64,000 nt of DNA, from positions 13,669-77,668 of the forward strand of contig DUKS01000002.1 of NCBI GenBank assembly GCA_013329215.1. The letters run 5' to 3'. Of the stretch, positions 7,830-30,761 are shown piece after piece; the stretch's first letter is position 1, and the number at the start of each line of letters is the position of its first letter. The position numbers were made by a program, and so were the translations under genes. The notes beneath the pieces are model-generated. The model was given only the letters and a program-made list of their open reading frames with translations. It was not told the origin of the DNA and searched no databases. The stretch is from Nanobdellota archaeon (GTDB taxonomy: Archaea; Nanobdellota; Nanobdellia; SCGC-AAA011-G17; GW2011-AR17).

Positions 7830-8384
7830 ATGAAGATAGAAACCAAGAGACTAATTTTAAGAGAATGGAATAAAAAAGATGCTGGTGATTTGGTTGAAGG
7901 GCTGAATAATCTGGAAGTTACAAAATGGCTTACATTTGCCCCTTATCCCTATACAAAGAAAGATGCAAAAGAGTGGATAAATTATTGCATTAAACTTTCC
8001 AAAAAAGGAAGCAAAAGAGAATCCTATGAGTTTGCTATCGAACTTAAGTCTGGAAAAAAAGTTATTGGCGGCGTGAGCCTTAACAAAATAAATAGATTTC
8101 AAGGAACAGCCGGCGGAGGAATATGGCTTAATAAAAACTATCAGGATAAGGGATATGGCTCAGAAGCATTCGGCGTAAGGCTAAATTTTGCCTTTAATCA
8201 ACTAAAATTAAGAAGAATTGAGAATGGCTTTCTTAAGGGGAATAAATCTTCATTCAAGATGCTTAAAAGATTGGGCTATAAGCTTGAGGGAATGAAGAGA
8301 GAAGCTTTTAGATGCAAGGCAGACGGGAAACTAAAAGATGAATATATAATGGGCTTGTTAAGGAAAGAGTGGAAGAAAAATTAA
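7830..8384 (+). CDS. GNAT family N-acetyltransferase (RimL-like)
   Basis: KRLILREW...GYGSEA acetyl-CoA binding motif region. Confidence 0.8.
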   Translation: MKIETKRLILREWNKKDAGDLVEGLNNLEVTKWLTFAPYPYTKKDAKEWINYCIKLSKKGSKRESYEFAIELKSGKKVIGGVSLNKINRFQGTAGGGIWLNKNYQDKGYGSEAFGVRLNFAFNQLKLRRIENGFLKGNKSSFKMLKRLGYKLEGMKREAFRCKADGKLKDEYIMGLLRKEWKKN

Positions 8385-23423: not shown

Positions 23424-24278
23424 ATGGCTTACCTCTCTGAAATCCACGCCTGCCGGTGGATAAAAGACCCTGTAAAGCTTTATATTTCCTTTACAGCTGC
23501 TGACCAGCACAAATCGCTTGCAACAGACATTGCAGTTGCTGTCACAAAAGCATTGCAGGAAGACCACAGGGCTTATCTTTCAAAATACGCAGGGTTTGCA
23601 GGCAAGAAAATAGTTTATGCTGATTCCAATCCTGATTCTGGCTCAAGCGAGCATGAAAATTGGCATACATTCCTTGAGAGAAGAAAGCTGAGCCCTGCTG
23701 CAGGGGAATTCATAGAGGAAGCAAGCTCTTATGTGATAGACGACCTGGAAACAGACAAGCCTTCCTGTGAGTACCTGAAGCACCTCAACTGGAGCAATGA
23801 GTTTGTCAGGACTTACCTTGCCATGCAAAACCGCCCCATATCAGAGCTCGAAACAATCCTGAGGCAGTTCGGGCACATTATCCCTGAATGGAATGAACAG
23901 GTAATGAAGGGCTCGTGCCCATGGCTGCGCTTCACAGACGAGGCAAAATATTTCCTGCTTTATCATCTCTGCTTTGACATAGCTTTCGGAAGGACAATAC
24001 AGGAGGCAAAACGAATCTACACCACTTCACTAAAAATAACAAAAAAGAAGGGTGTTGCAGCAGGGATAAAGCATTTAAGGCGGCGCGCTTCAAAAGCTGT
24101 TTCTGACATGTATGATTTTGATTTTGATATAGGCGGCTATTATCCAAATTATCCTTCCCTTGTGGAATACAGATTTTTCGGCAAAGAAGGGATTATCATA
24201 GAGGCGTGCGGAAAATATCCCTCATGGGTTGTGCCTCTTGACAGGGAAATTAAAAGAAGGGGGCTTGTCCCTGATTGA
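23424..24278 (+). CDS. Hypothetical protein, paralog A of a tandem pair (conserved Cys/His, unknown family)
   Basis: Shares HACRWIKDP, GxFIEEAS, CPWL, YFLLYxLCFD, GIxHLR, DxYDF...DIGGYxPxYP and EIKKRG with the next ORF. Confidence 0.55.
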   Translation: MAYLSEIHACRWIKDPVKLYISFTAADQHKSLATDIAVAVTKALQEDHRAYLSKYAGFAGKKIVYADSNPDSGSSEHENWHTFLERRKLSPAAGEFIEEASSYVIDDLETDKPSCEYLKHLNWSNEFVRTYLAMQNRPISELETILRQFGHIIPEWNEQVMKGSCPWLRFTDEAKYFLLYHLCFDIAFGRTIQEAKRIYTTSLKITKKKGVAAGIKHLRRRASKAVSDMYDFDFDIGGYYPNYPSLVEYRFFGKEGIIIEACGKYPSWVVPLDREIKRRGLVPD

Positions 24279-24328
24279 TGATTTGCAGAATATAAATGCT
24301 TATAAATCTTCAAAAAATCCAGCTTACT

Positions 24329-25183
24329 ATGGTCTCGATTCTTGAGGTAATGGCCTGCCATAGGATAAAGGATCCCGTTCGCTTTTATCTTCACACAACT
24401 TCAGAAGGGGAATATGAATTCCATGCAAGGGAATTTGCTGAAACTGTCGCAAGAAGGCTGATGGAAACAAGAAGGGCCTACCTTGCCACCGTTTCCGCGT
24501 TTGCAGATGACGGCAGGGTCATTTCCACAAAAGAAACGAGCGATGGCGGGCAGGCGCATGAAAGATGGCATAATTACGTGCAGGAAAATAAGCTTGAGTC
24601 TGATGCCGGGGATTTTATAGAAGAGGCAAGCGCTGCTGTAATTGAGTCTGTTACTGACGGATATGGCGACAAGTACCTTGAGCCAAGCAAGAGGTTCCTC
24701 CAGCTCCACCTTCTGGTGCAGAGGAGCAGCGGCGAGGAACTGGAAAAAATACTTGAAAAATTTTTTGTTGGCGACAAGGAACTTGTATATGAAGCTGACA
24801 AGATAATTATGGGCGATTCCTGCCCGTGGCTAAGCTATCTTGCGGAGGCGCCTTATTTTCTCCTTTACGGGCTTTGTTTTGATGTCTGTGCAACGAGGGG
24901 CCTAAGGGCTGCCAAGAGCATATATAAGACTGCGCTGAAAAAATCCAAATGCAAGGGAGTTAATGCAGGGATAAACCACCTCAGGCAGCATGCGACTTCC
25001 TCTGTTGCAGACCTTTATGATTTTTGCCTGTCTGACATAGGGGGATATCTGCCGAGCTATCCCCAATCACACCAGATGGAATATGTCTTTTTTGACAAAA
25101 AGCTGAAGATAGAAGTTTGCTTTGCTTACAAATCATGGCTTGAGATTGTTGAAAAGGAAATAAAGAAAAGAGGCTTTAGATAA
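24329..25183 (+). CDS. Hypothetical protein, paralog B of the tandem pair
   Basis: MACHRIKDP...DSCPWLSYL...YFLLYGLCFD...GINHLRQH...DLYDF...DIGGYLPSYP; start placed at the M that aligns with paralog A. Confidence 0.5.
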   Translation: MVSILEVMACHRIKDPVRFYLHTTSEGEYEFHAREFAETVARRLMETRRAYLATVSAFADDGRVISTKETSDGGQAHERWHNYVQENKLESDAGDFIEEASAAVIESVTDGYGDKYLEPSKRFLQLHLLVQRSSGEELEKILEKFFVGDKELVYEADKIIMGDSCPWLSYLAEAPYFLLYGLCFDVCATRGLRAAKSIYKTALKKSKCKGVNAGINHLRQHATSSVADLYDFCLSDIGGYLPSYPQSHQMEYVFFDKKLKIEVCFAYKSWLEIVEKEIKKRGFR

Positions 25184-25814
25184 ATTCTTTTAACTGCTTC
25201 GTTTCCGGCTTAAATACAAATGCATTCGCCGAGTCAAACCATCCGCACATGAAATTCTCAATCGGTATGCCTGCCCTTTTGCTCAGCATCAGTGCATAGA
25301 AATAAGTCTGTGTTGCCGCATACTTCTCCCTGTCTGCATTCGGCTTGTAGTCCCATACCCATATCTTGTTTCCTTCAATGCGCAGCAGGTCTATATGGCC
25401 TGTAAGCGGCTTCTCCTCCCTGAAGAGATGGCTGAATCTGTCTGTTTCTTCAGGCAAAAGCCAGACAGGCACTTCAATCGCAACCGTATGCCTGTCATTC
25501 TCCAGCATGAACATCTGGACTTTCAGGTGCTCTGAGCTGAACCTTTCCGCGTTTATGCCCAGCCCGTATGAGGTGAGAAGGCTTATGTCGTGGTCGTTGT
25601 GCCTTCTTATGTCAAGGTTCGGCATCTGAAAGCGGAGCTTTGAGCTTCTCGGCCCCTCAAGGAAATATTTGTCAGGGCAGCTTTTGAAAAGGCAGTTCAT
25701 GTATTCGTTCAGCCCGGAAAATCCGCTGCAAAGCAGTTCGCCTGCCTTTTTTTCATGCACGCTGTAGTCGTATTTCCACCCGTGCCAGAATTGTTTTTGT
25801 TTTATCACATCCAA
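25176..25814 (-). CDS. PD-(D/E)xK nuclease superfamily protein (RecB/Cas4-like core with QxxxY)
   Basis: GHIDLLRIEGNK...VWDYKPN...QTYFYALML; TTG start in the track; convergent with paralog B and overlapping it by 8 nt. Confidence 0.5.
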   Translation of the reverse strand: MDVIKQKQFWHGWKYDYSVHEKKAGELLCSGFSGLNEYMNCLFKSCPDKYFLEGPRSSKLRFQMPNLDIRRHNDHDISLLTSYGLGINAERFSSEHLKVQMFMLENDRHTVAIEVPVWLLPEETDRFSHLFREEKPLTGHIDLLRIEGNKIWVWDYKPNADREKYAATQTYFYALMLSKRAGIPIENFMCGWFDSANAFVFKPETKQLKEFI

Positions 25815-25869
25815 TACCCTCTTTTCCAGTTTTGGATTGTTTCCAGGGATATAAACATTGCGGCAAAGT

Positions 25870-25900
25870 CAGGCTCTGCATACATTGGTGCGTTAGCGGG
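25870..25900. repeat. Left copy of a 30-bp inverted repeat (28/30 identical to 29210-29240)
   Basis: gcatacattggtgcgttagcgggtgcttag versus the reverse complement of 29210-29240; 23-nt perfect core acattggtgcgttagcgggtgct. Confidence 0.7.
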
Positions 25901-25978
25901 TGCTTAGAATAGGCACGTATCATGCATTTTACCCTATACTTTGCCCGAAAAGTTTAAAAGTAAGGTATATTCACCATA

Positions 25979-26998
25979 GTGACGATGGCAAAAAGGCGAT
26001 TAGCAATAACAGAAGCTTCTACCAAAGATAACAGGAAAGACGCGGAGAAAGGAAAAGTTAAAGCTATTGCTAAACCTAAACAAGAGACTATTCGCCCTTA
26101 CCAAAAAAAGAGGAATAACATACTCTCTAAATTTAAGGTATGCACTAATAAACTCATTCAACATCGAAAAAATCCCATATTAGTCATGTTTTACTGTTCT
26201 GAAGGTGAAGGGAAAATTTTCCCTTGGGATTTGGCGTTGCTTGAGAAAGAATTTCAACATTATTGTGACTGTAGAAGAATTAGCAAGATAGATAAACTTG
26301 ATTTGATTATCTATACTAGGGGAGGGGATGCAAATACCTCTTATCGTTTAGCACAGTTAATAAGGGGCTATGTTAATCATTTGCATGTCATCATTCCAGA
26401 GTTTGCATATAGCGGGGGGACACTTATTGCTTTTGCAGGCAATTGCGTAGAAATGGGGGTTACAAGCGTGCTCTCACCAATTGATGTTCAAATTACTGAT
26501 AATAAAGATAAAGGGATTTCCCTGCTTGGCTTTGAAAAGTTTGTTGAGTTTATAGCAGACAGTTCGGCAGTTTTTCATCTTGAGGAACAAGAAAAAGCTC
26601 ACTTTGCCACGGAACTTATGAAATGTTTAGTTGAACAAGCCACTCCACTTGAACTTGGAGAAATATATAGGTTAAGAAGTATGACAAAGTATCATGCTGA
26701 AACTCTTTTAGCGAATTATATGTTTGGTAATGATGCAAACAAGGCAGCAATTATTCATAATGTAATAGGTGCCTTTACTAAAAATGCACCTTCTCATAGC
26801 TTTGATATGGACTATAATCTTGTTAAAGCAACTGGTATTAAAGTCAAACCAATGGATAGTAAAACATATAAACTCTCAAAGTCCCTAATAGAGCTATGCG
26901 TAAAGTTAGCAGACGAAGGATTAATTTGCAAATATCCGCAAGCCCAACTCAAAGTGAGGGCTCCTTACTTCGGCATATTCGACAGAAAAGATATGTAA
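25979..26998 (+). CDS. ClpP-fold serine protease, SDH (serine dehydrogenase proteinase, ex-DUF114) family
   Basis: IIYTRGGDANTSYRLAQLIRG...HVIIPEFAYSGGTLIAFAGNCVEMGVTSVLSPIDVQ, which resembles my recollection of the SDH/DUF114 family consensus (TPGG...A..I..........YAMSGGTLIAL.AD.IVM....LGPIDPQ); the gene is markedly AT-rich. Confidence 0.6.
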   Translation: MTMAKRRLAITEASTKDNRKDAEKGKVKAIAKPKQETIRPYQKKRNNILSKFKVCTNKLIQHRKNPILVMFYCSEGEGKIFPWDLALLEKEFQHYCDCRRISKIDKLDLIIYTRGGDANTSYRLAQLIRGYVNHLHVIIPEFAYSGGTLIAFAGNCVEMGVTSVLSPIDVQITDNKDKGISLLGFEKFVEFIADSSAVFHLEEQEKAHFATELMKCLVEQATPLELGEIYRLRSMTKYHAETLLANYMFGNDANKAAIIHNVIGAFTKNAPSHSFDMDYNLVKATGIKVKPMDSKTYKLSKSLIELCVKLADEGLICKYPQAQLKVRAPYFGIFDRKDM

Positions 26999-27152
26999 CT
27001 CATGGAGGCGTAAAAATGACATTCGAAGAAAAGTTTTTGGCAAGTCAAGAATACCACCAAAAAATATTAAAGTTTGAGTTTGAGAAACTCGGCAAGTCCT
27101 ATCTTGAAAAAATATAGGAAAAGAAAGTTAATTAATTTCTATTCTTTCTTTT

Positions 27153-28052
27153 TCATATCCTACCCTTACTCATCTGTATCAATTCCAGCCACTTATTCGG
27201 GGAACTCAGCGTTAAGTCCGTCGCCAACTCATAAGGGCATTTATTCAGTGATTGGTGCTTTGTTATGAAATTGTAGTATATCTCATATCCCTTTATGATG
27301 AGATTAGCACTTTCAACACTTCCGTGAAAGCCACGCATGGTTTTAGTCCTTGCCCTGATGCTGTTGTGCATCCTTTCAATGGGATAATTGAAGCTACCGC
27401 CGTCAGAAACAACCACTTTGTTATGTAATACATTGTGTTGGCGAAGCTTGTTATTGTAGCCGAAAACCCGCTTAATTACCCTCGGATAAGCCTGCAACCC
27501 ATCTGTTGTAATCATTCTGACATTGTCGGACTTTGCCTTAACCTGCTCCATAACTCTTTTTATTTTATCCGCACTTCTTGATTTAGCAAACTCCGCAGCC
27601 ACCATAAACTTTGTGTCAGGGTCTATGCTGTCTATCAGCCAATTCTTATCTAATCCGCCTCTGATGTGGTGCTTTCGCCTGTGGTATTCCACTTCATCCA
27701 TCTGGATTTCTTCCCCTGTATTCAGCTTCAAGCTGTCTGTAAAGCCTGATATTTGCCTTGCATACTTCCATAGCCATCTTAGAATTGTGCTGTGGTCTGA
27801 ATTATGCGGGTAGAACGCCTGTAAATGCTCCTGCACCTTTCTTGTGCTTACTCCCCTGTAAAACAGGTCAAGGCACAAGGTTATCTTCTGGGGGCTGTTT
27901 CTCATCCTGTAAAAGCCCTCATCCAAGACAAACCTATGAGAGCAATCCGCACATTTGTATCTCTGAATAAGTCCCCTGTTGCCTGTTTTCCGTAGCCCGT
28001 CTTTCTTGATATGCTCTTTCCCGCATTGTTGGCATTTGATTGCTTTTTCCAT
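27153..28052 (-). mobile_element. IS6-family (IS240-like) transposase with N-terminal zinc finger
   Basis: CQQCGK...CADCSH zinc finger; DDE core with ITTDGLQAYPRVI; TATA tatataaa at 28074-28081 about 25 nt upstream of the ATG. Confidence 0.75.
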
Positions 28053-28056
28053 ACTA

Positions 28057-28099
28057 TTTAGGTACCTAAACAGGTATATAAACCTTTGGGTACCTAAAG
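28057..28099. promoter_or_regulatory. Two GGTACC-centred palindromes flanking the TATA box (candidate operators)
   Basis: tttaggtacctaaa (28057-28070) and ctttgggtacctaaag (28084-28099), centres 28 bp apart, with tatataaa between them; a third copy ttgtaggtacctaa at 28753-28767. Confidence 0.45.
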
Positions 28100-28165
28100 T
28101 AGAAAAGTATATAAATACCTATAATTAATCATAGCTTGTTATAACTTATTATAGTTGATAGGAAG

Positions 28166-28474
28166 GTGAAAACGATGATAAATGGAAGGGCGACAACAAT
28201 ACAGGTGATGGAGAATACAAGACTTTGCCTTGAAAAACTTAAGGTCGTAAAGCAAGAACCTTATGATAATGTCATAAGGAGGATTATAGAGAGAGTATTA
28301 GACTTATGTGAAGAAGGTACAGATTTAGAGACAAAGAAGATGATACAGGGTAGGCTAAATGAGGTTGCTAAAGGGGACGTTATTTCAACAAAGCAGTTAA
28401 GAGATATTTTATTTTCGGGAGGGGAAAAAAATGGTGAAATACGAAAAGGTATGGGCAAGGTCTATAGGGCATGA
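28166..28474 (+). CDS. Putative antitoxin (archaeal VapB-like family)
   Basis: TTIQVMENTRLCLEKLK...EPYDNVIRRIIERVL pattern; upstream of the RelE-like toxin and overlapping it. Confidence 0.45.
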   Translation: MKTMINGRATTIQVMENTRLCLEKLKVVKQEPYDNVIRRIIERVLDLCEEGTDLETKKMIQGRLNEVAKGDVISTKQLRDILFSGGEKNGEIRKGMGKVYRA

Positions 28475-28751
28475 CCTAAAAGGAATAAGTGAAAGAATAT
28501 TTAATGTTATTGATGGTAAAATAGATGATATTCTAGATTCCCCGAACACAAAATCAAAAAAGATAAAAGGATGGGCTTATAATATAAGAAGAATCCGTTT
28601 GGGTAATTACCGACTTTTAATTTATGTGGATGACTTAAACCTAACAGTCTATTGCTTGGCTTATTTACCTAGAAAAAATTGTTATAGCCCAGAAACAAGG
28701 GCAATGATTATGAATATCGCTAGGAATGTTGAAAAACAAAAAAGTATATAA
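28431..28751 (+). CDS. RelE/ParE-family toxin
   Basis: GYNIRRIRLGNYRLLIYVDDLNLTVYCLAYLPRKNCY. Confidence 0.6.
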   Translation: MVKYEKVWARSIGHDLKGISERIFNVIDGKIDDILDSPNTKSKKIKGWAYNIRRIRLGNYRLLIYVDDLNLTVYCLAYLPRKNCYSPETRAMIMNIARNVEKQKSI

Positions 28752-28774
28752 ACTTGTAGGTACCTAATAAAGAT

Positions 28775-28936
28775 ATGAAACTGCAAAAACAGCTTTCTCG
28801 GAAATACGAAGGAAAGGATTATGCCAAGTACGTTATCGTTATAAAACCAACATATATTGAGCAATTGGGCTGGAAGAAGTCCGACGAGCTTAAAGTAGAA
28901 GTTAAGGATAACAAGCTGGTTATAGAGAAGGATTAA
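28775..28936 (+). CDS. Small AbrB/MazE-like (swapped-hairpin) protein, 53 aa; not in the ORF track
   Basis: Manual translation MKLQKQLSRKYEGKDYAKYVIVIKPTYIEQLGWKKSDELKVEVKDNKLVIEKD; a GGTACC palindrome lies 8 nt upstream. Confidence 0.45.
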   Translation: MKLQKQLSRKYEGKDYAKYVIVIKPTYIEQLGWKKSDELKVEVKDNKLVIEKD

Positions 28937-28937
28937 A

Positions 28938-29159
28938 ATGATAAAAGTTAAATCAAAAAGGGGGGTTTTGGCTGAATATCTGAGGAACCCCTATATTGAA
29001 ACAAGCTTAATGGCAGTTATTTATTTTGAATTTAGTAGTATAGTATTAGATTATTTTCCAAAGAAGAAGTATATTTTATTATGCTGGTCTATTATTTCAG
29101 CAATAGTTATAATTGGATATTGGGCATACAGGCAAAAAGCGTATTCAAATAAAACTTAA
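28938..29159 (+). CDS. Small membrane protein (two TM segments)
   Basis: Hydrophobic segments; starts 2 nt after the AbrB-like ORF. Confidence 0.35.
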   Translation: MIKVKSKRGVLAEYLRNPYIETSLMAVIYFEFSSIVLDYFPKKKYILLCWSIISAIVIIGYWAYRQKAYSNKT

Positions 29160-29209
29160 TAATAATAGTTTTCGGACAAATATATTCTTTATATAATCTT
29201 TAATGTGCT

Positions 29210-29240
29210 TAGCACCCGCTAACGCACCAATGTAGGCTCT
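29210..29240. repeat. Right copy of the 30-bp inverted repeat
   Basis: cttagcacccgctaacgcaccaatgtaggc; contains TTAGC-N4-GCTAA; a TATA-like ttataaag lies 14-21 nt downstream. Confidence 0.7.
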
Positions 29241-29291
29241 GCAAAAGGCTTATAAAGTATAGCTGAATAACTTTCAGCGGGGGTAATTATA

Positions 29292-29702
29292 ATGGCAGAA
29301 ATATCAGAACTCGGAAGAAAACAGATTGAGTGCTGGACAGCGCTCAAGGCATATCTTGAGCAGGTCTTTGCAGATGAGAAGCTGGAAAACCTGCTTTTTA
29401 ACGGAAGGCGGGACATAGAACTATTCACGGCTAAAGATGCCGAGGTAAATGCAAAAGGAGCAAAGGTGCAGGTTGTTTATGGAATAAATGGCGTTGGTGC
29501 ATACCGCAAGGTCGAAGATGAAACCCTTTTCCAAAACATATTCCACTACCGCTGGGGGCACCGCCATTCCCCGTTCGCCCTCGCTTTTGCGCTTGCTGCG
29601 GACTCAAAGGACGCGCTGACACCTGCAGACCTGGAAGCAAAACTTGGGCCTTACAGGCAGATGGCGGCCGGCACTGCCCAGCCCGCCCCGCAGGCAAAGT
29701 AA
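29292..29702 (+). CDS. Hypothetical protein with GC-rich Ala/Pro-rich C-terminus
   Basis: ORF only; preceded by the 30-bp repeat and a TATA. Confidence 0.35.
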   Translation: MAEISELGRKQIECWTALKAYLEQVFADEKLENLLFNGRRDIELFTAKDAEVNAKGAKVQVVYGINGVGAYRKVEDETLFQNIFHYRWGHRHSPFALAFALAADSKDALTPADLEAKLGPYRQMAAGTAQPAPQAK

Positions 29703-29738
29703 ATAGCTTTTTATATACCTTTTCTTTATTATCTCCTG

Positions 29739-30761
29739 ATGGGAGTTAAGCTTACAGACATAGTGCCGAGAAAAGAGATAGGCTGGGATGTGCTTAGCGG
29801 GAAAGTGCTTGCGCTTGACGCTTCAAATGTTCTTTACCAGTTCTTAAGCTCGATAAGGCAGCCTGACGGGACTTTATTGATGGATTCAAAAGGAAGGGTT
29901 ACGAGCCACCTCGTTGGCCTGTTTTCCCGCACTACAAACCTTATTGAGAAAGGAGTAAAACCGGCGTTTGTGTTTGACGGAAAGCCCCCTGCATTAAAAG
30001 GCGGTGAAATAGAGCGGAGGAGGGGGAGAAAAGAAAAAGCTGCTGAGAAATACGAAGAGGCAAAAGAAGAAGGCGATGAAAGCAGCATGCTGAAATACTC
30101 AAGGCAGTCAATAAAGCTTACGAAAGAGATGGCTGAAGAGGCAAAAGAGCTTGTTTCTGCCCTTGGCCTGCCTGTTGTACAGGCGCCTTCAGAAGCAGAG
30201 GCGCAGGCTGCATTTATATGCAAAAGGGGCGATGCATGGGCTGTTGCTTCGCAGGACTATGATGCATTATTGTTTGGCGCGCCGCGGGTTGTGCAGAACC
30301 TGACGCTTGCAGAAAGAAGGAAGCTGCCTAACGGAACTTATGCCAAAGTCACTCCTGCCCTGATTGAGCTTCAGGAGACCTTATCTTCGCTTTCAATATC
30401 GCAGGAGCAGCTTTTGTCGCTTGCAATACTTGTCGGCACTGACTTCAATCCCGGCGGCGTAAAGGGGATAGGCGCAAAAAAGGCGCTGAAGCTTGTTTCT
30501 GAATTCAATACAAGGGAAGATATATTCAGGGCTGCAAAGGCGGAATTTGATTACAGGGAAATAGCGGGTGTTTTCAGTGATATGCCTGTAAAAGAGGATT
30601 ACAGCGTTGAGTTCATGCAACTTGATGAGGAAAGGGTAAAGAAGATACTGGTTGACAAGCACGGGTTTTCTGTTGAGAGGGTTGATTCGGGGCTTGAAAG
30701 GCTTAGAGCGAAAAAAGAGGAGAGCAAAGGGCAGACGAGCTTATTGGCATTTGGCAGGTAG
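29739..30761 (+). CDS. fen1: Flap endonuclease 1
   Basis: MGVKLTDIV...LALDASNVLYQFL...AFVFDGKPP; XPG-N and XPG-I regions. Confidence 0.9.
   Translation: MGVKLTDIVPRKEIGWDVLSGKVLALDASNVLYQFLSSIRQPDGTLLMDSKGRVTSHLVGLFSRTTNLIEKGVKPAFVFDGKPPALKGGEIERRRGRKEKAAEKYEEAKEEGDESSMLKYSRQSIKLTKEMAEEAKELVSALGLPVVQAPSEAEAQAAFICKRGDAWAVASQDYDALLFGAPRVVQNLTLAERRKLPNGTYAKVTPALIELQETLSSLSISQEQLLSLAILVGTDFNPGGVKGIGAKKALKLVSEFNTREDIFRAAKAEFDYREIAGVFSDMPVKEDYSVEFMQLDEERVKKILVDKHGFSVERVDSGLERLRAKKEESKGQTSLLAFGR

Follow-up and report, generated by a model that had tools for sequence, protein, structure and literature searches.

The DNA analysed here (the window) is a stretch of 64,000 nucleotides from a Nanobdellota archaeon (assembly GCA_013329215.1, contig DUKS01000002.1, positions 13,669 to 77,668). 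Between its PolB and FEN1 genes, in the short divergent promoter region that separates a PD-(D/E)xK nuclease gene from a small open reading frame (ORF29292), lies a cassette of about 3.4 kb bounded by inverted repeats. Its GC content is 0.366, compared with 0.453 in the flanks (3 kb per side), in agreement with an initial annotation of this DNA that had called it AT-rich. That annotation had left two readings standing: the repeats were either the ends of a composite or cargo-carrying mobile element or a cis-regulatory element shared by the two outward-facing genes. It had also listed an SDH protease, an IS6-family transposase, a RelE-like toxin with its antitoxin, an AbrB-like gene and a small membrane protein as enclosed genes. 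This gene content was confirmed with varying strength, as the SDH_protease and DDE_Tnp_IS240 models scored above their cut-offs, and ParE_toxin and MazE/AbrB just below theirs.

A repeat search of the window returned two complementary arms of 30 nt at 25878-25907 and 29208-29237, which are 93% (28/30) complementary. The 28/30 inverted repeat described initially is thus real, and its perfect 23-nt core (25882-25904 and 29211-29233) had been placed correctly; the left arm, given as 25870-25900, was about 8 nt off. Base-by-base registration showed that the repeat proper begins at T25881 and A29234 and is perfect over 24 of 24 positions (TACATTGGTGCGTTAGCGGGTGCT), with 26 of 27 positions paired up to 25907/29208. 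The outermost three paired bases of the 30-mer belong to a flanking direct repeat and pair by chance. The terminal inverted repeats (TIRs) therefore extend over 25881-25907 on the plus strand and 29208-29234 on the minus strand, and the parts conserved in related elements (see below) are the 24 nt at 25881-25904 and 29211-29234. Immediately outside both repeats, without any spacer, lies a perfect 9-bp direct repeat, GGCTCTGCA, at 25872-25880 on the left and 29235-29243 on the right. The initial annotation had suggested looking for target-site duplications at exactly these places and had not seen this one. With up to three mismatches, the 24-mer occurred at only two sites in the window, namely the two arms, and in none of 100 shuffled sequences. 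By our own rough estimate, a perfect 24-nt TIR with an abutting 9-bp repeat would arise by chance in about 3e-11 configurations per 64 kb; under a far less strict criterion (17/24), automated scanning returned 6 matches in 200 shuffles of ten loci. The combination of a 24-nt inverted repeat with a directly abutting 9-nt direct repeat, both perfect, is a hallmark of DDE transposition, and the element was therefore delimited to 25881-29234. It comprises 3354 bp, with a single transposase and six other open reading frames (ORFs) within one pair of ends. The 3.4-kb block is a transposon inserted between two host genes.

The site into which the element was inserted could be traced on a second contig. 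The TATA box of the nuclease gene (the reverse complement of 25847-25855) and that of ORF29292 (29250-29258) are both host sequences located beyond the repeats. When homologues of ORF29292 were sought, a contig of a related genome was found (L041; GCA_053533675.1, JAIYMP010000052.1), which has the gene order PolB, a paralogue discussed below, PD-(D/E)xK nuclease, ORF29292 homologue, FEN1, HTH_45, membrane protein, Trm5 and FtsJ. Its nuclease and ORF29292 homologue are 75% and 63% identical to those of the window at the amino acid level. The two genes are adjacent and divergent in L041, with nothing in between, and the repeat is absent from the orthologous promoter. The TATA/promoter region AAGGCTTATAAA before the small ORF has been kept, and just upstream of it lies a single, diverged copy of the target (CAGGCGCATGCGG in L041 vs CAGGCTCTGCA in the window). 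Judged from gene order and sequence, L041 is the orthologous empty site, and the nuclease gene and ORF29292 originally shared a divergent promoter region. Thus, the comparison with empty sites proposed by the initial annotation yielded one from another species and none from the same species.

The archaeon of the window stems from a groundwater metagenome, in which the locus lies on contigs ERZ909578 k127_155275 and Ga0103681_1000066 (JGI); its MAG bears the name 'Nanoarchaeota archaeon' at NCBI. Same-species alleles were sought in two ways. The empty site reconstructed from the window reads ...GCAAAGTCAGGCTCTGCAAAAGGCTTATAAAG..., and its exact 25-mer, CAAAGTCAGGCTCTGCAAAAGGCTT, had no match in the JGI metagenome contigs; this is a weak negative, as that collection evidently lacks the source sample and a TIR scan of it did not return the window locus either. 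An exact look-up of the flanking nuclease protein found no such allele on record. In one contig from another sample of the same project (L006; ERZ909575 k127_498477), the first base coincides exactly with that of the right duplication, and positions 1-9 correspond to 29235-29243 of the window. Such a start would be expected if the assembly graph branched at the insertion junction, and it hints at filled and empty alleles, or a rearrangement, in that population. A contig from a divergent strain (L007) was considered for dating the insertion and set aside as uninformative, since its element part had 0 mismatches and the mismatches clustered inside FEN1.

The transposase gene (27153-28052, minus strand) encodes a 299-aa protein in which an N-terminal zinc finger (CxxC...CxxC) is combined with a DDE catalytic domain. 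The Pfam model DDE_Tnp_IS240 (PF13610) matched it at 39.7 bits, which passes the cut-off of 27, and the IS1/IS1595 Zn model matched the N-terminal zinc-binding region at 27.8 bits against a cut-off of 28. The protein is named 'IS1/IS6 family transposase' at NCBI. In a tblastn search, the closest annotated plasmid-borne relatives were clostridial IS6/ISCpe7-like transposases (26-28% identity, E ~1e-10), and the closest solved structure was that of an IS256-type transposase (E = 1.7e-5). The zinc finger and residues D119, D184 and E226 are invariant in 25 aligned family members. All 25 aligned relatives, like the window transposase, are encoded by a single ORF. As neither this ORF nor its predicted catalytic residues are disrupted in the window, and the ends and the duplication are likewise intact, the window copy could be active.

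Eight further elements were found on other archaeal contigs, with transposases 58-67% identical to that of the window. One of them (L014; transposase 59% identical) came to light when metagenome contigs were scanned with the repeat core, and six (L015, L024, L034, L036, L037 and L039) from the contexts of homologous transposases retrieved by protein search. The last (L035) was the one locus returned by an alignment-based search of viral contigs, where a single-protein search gave none. In seven of these eight sister elements, which span 2.2-5.5 kb, related ends enclose the transposase gene and are themselves bordered by a perfect 9-bp duplication of the element's own: L014 (4518-6765, 2248 bp, TGAGTATAC), L015 (2416-7933, 5518 bp, ATTTTATGG), L024 (4094-8688, 4595 bp, CCTTACAAT), L034 (4147-8861, 4715 bp, GGATAGGCG), L036 (7701-11286, 3586 bp, TTATAATAA), L037 (5694-9800, 4107 bp, GCCTTAAGT) and L039 (6003-10695, 4693 bp, AAGTTATAG). 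The eight duplications, counting that of the window, are all different and have no common motif. All these insertions are intergenic or at gene ends, as expected where only tolerated insertions survive in a compact genome. When the ends of all nine elements (18 sequences) were aligned, the similarity extended over exactly 24 positions and no further, and 11 of these positions were invariant (consensus TACATTGGTGCnTTAAAGGGTGnT).

The ends fall into subtypes that follow the transposases. In the elements with TTCTTTGTTACC-type ends (L024, L036 and L039), the transposases share 71-77% identity with one another, compared with 58-68% identity to those of elements with CATTGGTGC-type ends. Because the end subtype tracks the transposase clade, enzyme and ends co-evolve, which means that the internal transposase is the element's own, and that the cassette is neither a composite transposon nor an insertion sequence (IS) nested in something else. 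The best surviving alternative, which we regard as very unlikely, is that the outer repeats belong to another, non-autonomous or composite element and that the IS6-like transposase gene is an independent passenger IS. The gene is indeed placed centrally, with 1.2 kb between it and each end of the cassette, and it is richer in GC (~0.43-0.46) than the rest of the element. However, the repeat search of the window found no inverted repeat bracketing the transposase gene alone, and there is no second IS copy that would make the element composite. Moreover, homologous transposases occur within the same family of 24-nt ends at eight other loci, at variable distances from these ends, and the end subtypes co-vary with the transposase clades as described above. 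The initial proposal of a cargo-carrying mobile element is thus upheld by the 9-bp duplication, the orthologous empty site and the eight sister elements with the same ends, and its qualifier 'composite' falls with the single transposase and the lack of flanking IS copies. Likewise, the 'IS6-family transposase' that had been counted among the enclosed genes is not cargo, but the enzyme that belongs to these ends.

Still less probable, and rejected here, is the second initial reading, in which the 30-mer is a shared operator or enhancer of the nuclease gene and ORF29292 and the enclosed genes are ordinary neighbours. Each copy of the repeat does lie 48-66 nt from the start of an outward-facing gene, beside a TATA-like box, and the right arm holds a perfect small palindrome, TTAGC-N4-GCTAA. 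The position of the repeats upstream of outward-facing genes is accounted for by the landing of the element between the two host TATA boxes of a divergent promoter region. The palindrome, which the initial annotation had attributed to both copies, is imperfect in the left arm (TTAGC-GGGT-GCTTA). It is also absent from the ends of the related elements and is therefore not a conserved feature. The search for additional copies of the repeat at promoters, a check put forward by the initial annotation, found none in the window beyond the two arms (at up to three mismatches). Among 185,579 species-representative genomes, the 20-nt core was absent save for one match in a glycine-rich coding region (…IGALAGA…) of Pseudoalteromonas (L010; the same sequence occurs in L011 and L012). 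By our own estimate, about one chance match is expected in this 596-Gb collection, and the TIR 20-mer had no match in viral contigs. Thus, the repeat is not a widespread motif, and the exact ends are absent from the species-representative genome set. In addition, the orthologous promoter region of L041 lacks the motif while keeping the TATA region, the same ends enclose unrelated genes beside unrelated host genes at eight other loci, and a regulatory motif leaves the 9-bp direct repeat unexplained. An islet produced by site-specific recombination (with an integrase acting in trans) or by local rearrangement, with the repeats as remnants of recombination sites, would suit AT-rich foreign DNA carrying toxin-antitoxin genes, as is typical of integrated elements, but is similarly improbable, since no integrase or recombinase gene lies in or beside the cassette, site-specific integration produces direct att repeats rather than 24-nt inverted ends with a 9-bp duplication, and the insertion sites of the family share no sequence, as seen from the eight different duplications.

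Several observations weigh against the interpretation as a transposon with its own enzyme. L041 belongs to a different species, and its empty-site junction is diverged rather than identical; every same-species contig that reaches the site carries the element, and no same-species empty-site allele was found among them. There is no direct sign of current activity, as the window contains one copy and the exact transposase protein is on record only here, in three contigs. L035 (5859-9923, IMGVR_UViG_3300001335_000237) has the ends, but no duplication, its flanks reading ACATTATGT and CTTTATAAT. The transposase scored below both relevant NCBIfam cut-offs (IS6, 83.5 vs 125; IS1, 63.8 vs 100), and its mechanism therefore cannot simply be copied from either family. 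With these points considered, we hold it to be highly probable that the cassette is a single autonomous DNA transposon, IS-like and with passenger genes (a 'transporter IS'), that belongs to a large and tightly conserved family found in DPANN-type archaea.

Homology to DDE enzymes suggests how such an element would move. The zinc-finger DDE transposase would recognise and bind the two 24-nt TIRs, 3'-OH groups would be exposed at the ends, and these would be joined to target phosphates staggered by 9 bp. Repair of the gaps would then generate the 9-bp duplication GGCTCTGCA. The window element landed between the two TATA boxes of the divergent promoter region, so that the nuclease gene and ORF29292 have both retained theirs. 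A simple insertion and a resolved IS6-style cointegrate would equally leave single copies with intact duplications.

An all-against-all protein comparison of eight elements showed that the transposase is the only protein common to all of them. A second constituent recurs by type: all nine complete elements (9/9) carry a small gene for either a Zn-ribbon or an AbrB-like protein. The Zn-ribbon protein (46-55 aa; MPEI.IKVKGYKCNNC.YEW.PRS...P..CP.CKSARWDK) is encoded next to the transposase in L014, L015, L024, L034, L036 and L035, and an AbrB/SpoVT-like protein of 53-55 aa is found in L037, L039 and the window. In the window, this predicted DNA-binding protein has 53 aa (28775-28936, plus strand), matches MazE_antitoxin at 23.3 bits, just under the cut-off of 24.7, and is 50% identical to that of L037, whose gene (55 aa) is directly divergent from the transposase gene. 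The AbrB-like gene is probably a regulator within the transposition module, as its position in these elements suggests. The core of a family member consists of the transposase and one small DNA-binding gene, with variable cargo on both sides.

Candidate sites of action for this small protein were seen in the promoters. A conserved AAAGGTTTATATA box precedes the transposase start in all elements, and in the AbrB-type elements it is flanked by palindromes that are specific to each element, namely TTAGGTACCTAA in the window, TTAGATACCTAA (four copies) in L037 and TTCGGGCACCGAA in L039. In the divergent promoter region between the transposase gene and the toxin-antitoxin operon of the window (28053-28174), the TATA boxes are flanked by TTAGGTACCTAA at 28058-28069 and 28086-28097. 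A duplicate of this promoter/operator (GTATATAAAC...GTAGGTACCTAA) stands as a direct repeat before the AbrB-like gene (28738-28768, plus strand), where 28738-28767 is a 30-nt copy, 83% identical, of 28068-28097. The matches to TTAGGTACCTAA at 28058, 28086 and 28756 are the sole ones in 64 kb. We infer from this arrangement that the small protein would act as an autoregulated repressor of the transposase promoter, probably through the palindromic operators around the TATA box. In the window, the toxin-antitoxin pair would have been inserted between regulator and transposase along with the promoter/operator copy. Two points weigh against this part of the interpretation: three palindrome matches are in themselves not above chance, as 24 of 100 shuffled sequences reached three with up to two mismatches, and the operator and regulator roles are based on position and on co-variation in three elements. 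The AbrB-type elements have one further gene near the AbrB-like gene, for a small protein of 73-86 aa with hydrophobic stretches (window, 28938-29159; L039, 6086-6346; L037, 6377-6628). In the window and L039, it forms one operon with the AbrB-like gene, and the three proteins have no detectable mutual similarity.

The cargo of the window element begins with a gene for an SDH-type, ClpP-fold serine-protease-like protein of 337 aa (25985-26998, plus strand; ATG at 25985, alternative GTG at 25979). The match to PF01972 (47.6 bits, cut-off 31.3) covers only residues 93-179 (87 residues), and the score for the NCBIfam equivalog Clp_like_SDH (54 bits) lies far under the cut-off of 250. The protein had no match in the PDB. 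A search found 15 homologues, the nearest with 47% identity, and the homologue in L042 sits outside any transposon. Directly 3' of the protease-like gene lies an ORF of 33 aa (27016-27117, plus strand) that is called as a gene in the source contigs. A short ORF follows the protease-like gene in two otherwise unrelated contexts, with 33 aa in the window (25985-27117 for the pair) and 45 aa in L042 (7001-8108), and the two short ORFs showed no significant similarity to each other. The SDH-like protease and the short ORF may form a two-gene module.

On the other side of the transposase gene lies the predicted toxin-antitoxin pair. The putative antitoxin (99 aa; 28175-28474, plus strand) is assigned by position and had no family match in Pfam, NCBIfam or PADLOC; its gene overlaps by 44 nt with that of a RelE/ParE-superfamily toxin-like protein (106 aa; 28431-28751, plus strand). 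The latter matched ParE_toxin at 20 bits (E = 0.001, cut-off 23), and its top PDB matches were all RelE (3bpq, RelE3, E = 0.015; 4fxe; 4v7k), with E = 0.015-0.08. The last gene, in the operon with the AbrB-like gene (28938-29159, plus strand), encodes the 73-aa protein with two hydrophobic stretches, as read from the sequence, and had no significant Pfam match. In sum, the cargo of the window would consist of a RelE/ParE-type pair placed between regulator and transposase with a duplicated promoter/operator, an SDH-type protease-like gene and small ORFs. A PADLOC scan of this cargo gave no matches. Among the sampled family members, the window element is the only one with a recognisable toxin-antitoxin pair.

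In the sister elements, the cargo differs from one element to the next, and restriction-modification (R-M) or methyltransferase genes occur in six of the nine complete elements. L015 carries a 906-aa MmeI-like type IIG restriction-modification enzyme, L024 an MjaI-type endonuclease with a methyltransferase, L036 a methyltransferase-Mrr fusion, and both L037 and L035 a methyltransferase-RAMA protein. L034 combines a methyltransferase with an unannotated 339-aa protein and an AlbA_2/HATPase protein, and L039 carries a Fic protein. For ten unannotated cargo proteins of the sister elements, nothing scored above the Pfam cut-offs. Given this result and the negative PADLOC scan of the window cargo, the label 'defence' applies to the methyltransferase/R-M, Fic and RelE/ParE members only. 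A shared core of large genes convergent with the transposase (the SDH-like 337 aa in the window, 332 aa in L014, 297 aa in L024, 339 aa in L034 and 316 aa in L039) was considered and rejected, as these proteins have no mutual similarity and are thus independent cargo. The rate of exchange is illustrated by L015 and L037, whose transposases are 95.6% identical and whose ends match at 23 of 24 positions, yet which have no cargo in common. This shows that cargo turns over faster than the transposition module diverges.

Further observations were made on individual members of the family. L035 lies on a contig classed as viral (IMG/VR), adjoining a gene for a 773-aa portal or head-morphogenesis-like protein, and its ends are a hybrid or intermediate of the two end types (TACATTGTTACCTTA...). 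It shares with L037 a 216-aa protein and the methyltransferase-RAMA gene, and its Zn-ribbon gene stands in the place of the AbrB-like gene of L037. Two family members, with the transposases P0040 (L015-L023) and P0029 (L024-L033), were each found on at least 24 contigs; these stem from a wide range of samples and studies, Rifle-type aquifer samples among them. These elements occupy one fixed site with the same duplication in nearly all places shown and are established insertions in widespread populations. The exception is L016, which has the same element as L015 and a left flank that is 99% identical. Its right tip is degenerate (...GCACCATTTTG vs ...GCACCAATGTA in L015, at ~7900-7950), and the right neighbourhood differs completely, with DUF2283 and beta-propeller genes in L016 and RNA polymerase genes in L015. 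These differences point to a rearrangement associated with the element or to two copies having been joined during assembly. A partial element on L013 (positions 1-1373; Ga0210057_1063999) ends in the same 24-nt repeat as the window element and adjoins an aIF-1A gene; the last of its genes, a reverse-transcriptase-like cargo ORF, is split by a frameshift (302-946 and 846-1361).

L041 and the window also differ in the host DNA beside the insertion site. In the window, PolB and the nuclease gene are separated by two tandem paralogues (23424-24278 and 24296-25183; 284 and 295 aa) that are 42% identical (E = 3e-72), both without a match in Pfam, NCBIfam or PADLOC. L041 has a single paralogue copy (277 aa) and an AAA_14/DUF4143 ATPase gene that is absent from the window. 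An Rfam scan of 25000-30000 found no RNA family.

Among known systems, the IS6 family (IS26/IS240) is the nearest. The window transposase passed the Pfam IS240/IS6-type model and had transpos_IS6 as its best NCBIfam match, though below the cut-off, and a single transposase ORF and short TIRs are common to both; a zinc-finger-bearing clade of IS6, clade h, exists (PMC7986276). In contrast, all eight duplicated elements of the present family (8/8) have duplications of 9 bp, compared with 8 bp in IS6, and their ends are 24 nt long and start with T[A/G/T]C, compared with IS6 inverted repeats of 14 nt (PMC7986276). IS6 members measure ~0.7-0.9 kb (up to ~1.7 kb), and only ISDsp3 has been reported with a passenger gene (PMC7986276), whereas the elements described here measure 2.2-5.5 kb and always have passenger genes. 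Furthermore, IS6 moves passengers by means of pairs of directly repeated copies, and the window contains no second copy and no pseudo-compound arrangement. By membership, as far as the model matches indicate, the family is a distant relative nearest to IS6.

The resemblance to IS1 lies in the duplication, which in IS1 is 9 bp and sometimes 8 bp, in the N-terminal zinc region and in transpos_IS1 as the second-best NCBIfam match. Unlike IS1, the window transposase scored under the IS1 cut-off and has a single ORF without frameshifted insA/insB, the end sequence is different, and cargo is carried; the plasmid tblastn search with the transposase gave no IS1 match. The archaeal 'ISMhu11' subgroup of IS1 reaches 4.6 kb, and a literature search for 'ISMhu11' was without result. 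In its organisation, the element agrees with transporter IS (tIS), which have one transposase, passenger genes enclosed by TIRs and a short target duplication. These were said to be restricted to IS1595 and IS66 (TnCentral preprint), and the window transposase had no match above cut-off to the catalytic domain of either. Compared with tIS, cargo appears to be the rule in the present family (9/9 complete elements), and the transposase gene comes with a small DNA-binding gene. Tn3-family transposons make 5-bp duplications and have an unrelated transposase, and the window element has no resolvase or res site. They resemble it in holding a toxin-antitoxin pair within the transposition module (PMC7157771), as the RelE/ParE-type pair of the window lies between transposase and regulator and shares the promoter region. 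Bacterial R-M units with TIRs and an 8-bp target duplication have been revealed by empty-site comparison (Furuta, Abe and Kobayashi 2010; PMC2853133). Those units have no linked transposase and none is archaeal (PMC2853133), whereas here a dedicated transposase family travels with R-M genes. Asgard aloposons were considered as a relative and rejected, being elements with giant genes that integrate at tRNA sites (PMC8813620).

The family is large. A word-indexed search of protein clusters at 90% identity returned at least 1258 homologues at E <= 1e-5. The best 120 of these are 60-70% identical to the window protein and ~300 aa long, and those with a named source belong to Nanoarchaeota or Pacearchaeota. 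When clustered at 50%, the tight family is reduced to a few representatives. The wider superfamily around it numbers 84 clusters (E <= 1e-30) or 1605 clusters (E <= 1e-3), and many of its members have an extra N-terminal domain of ~100 aa. A literature search, which did not cover ISfinder, where a curated entry (e.g. the 'ISMhu11' group) is possible, found no paper on the ends, duplication or cargo of the family. Thus, a large DPANN family of IS6-like, 9-bp-duplicating and cargo-carrying transposons appears to be undescribed. According to a survey of 2019, no passenger-carrying DNA transposons had been detected in archaea (PMC6563490), and Tn7-like elements have reportedly been found there since.

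For the window, these results settle the annotation, in that the 3.4 kb between the nuclease gene and ORF29292 are foreign. The mechanism is conventional, and it is the family-wide carriage of cargo in minimal-genome archaea that deserves a systematic census. DPANN archaea have very small genomes and few recognised defence systems (PMC12988326), and a family that routinely carries and exchanges R-M, Fic and toxin-antitoxin genes would be a main route for accessory genes in these organisms. Since the 24-nt end consensus and the 9-bp duplication delimit the cargo exactly, unannotated cargo can be harvested as candidate defence or addiction functions. More tentatively, as a proposal that may well prove too broad, the elements would constitute a DPANN-wide 'defence-shuttle' family, in which a conserved IS6-like zinc-finger transposase, 24-nt ends, 9-bp duplications and a dedicated small repressor are combined with two cargo bays of fast turnover, and which moves R-M, Fic, toxin-antitoxin and unannotated genes between DPANN archaea and their viruses. 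If this is true, the unannotated cargo would be a ready-made catalogue of candidate archaeal defence genes.

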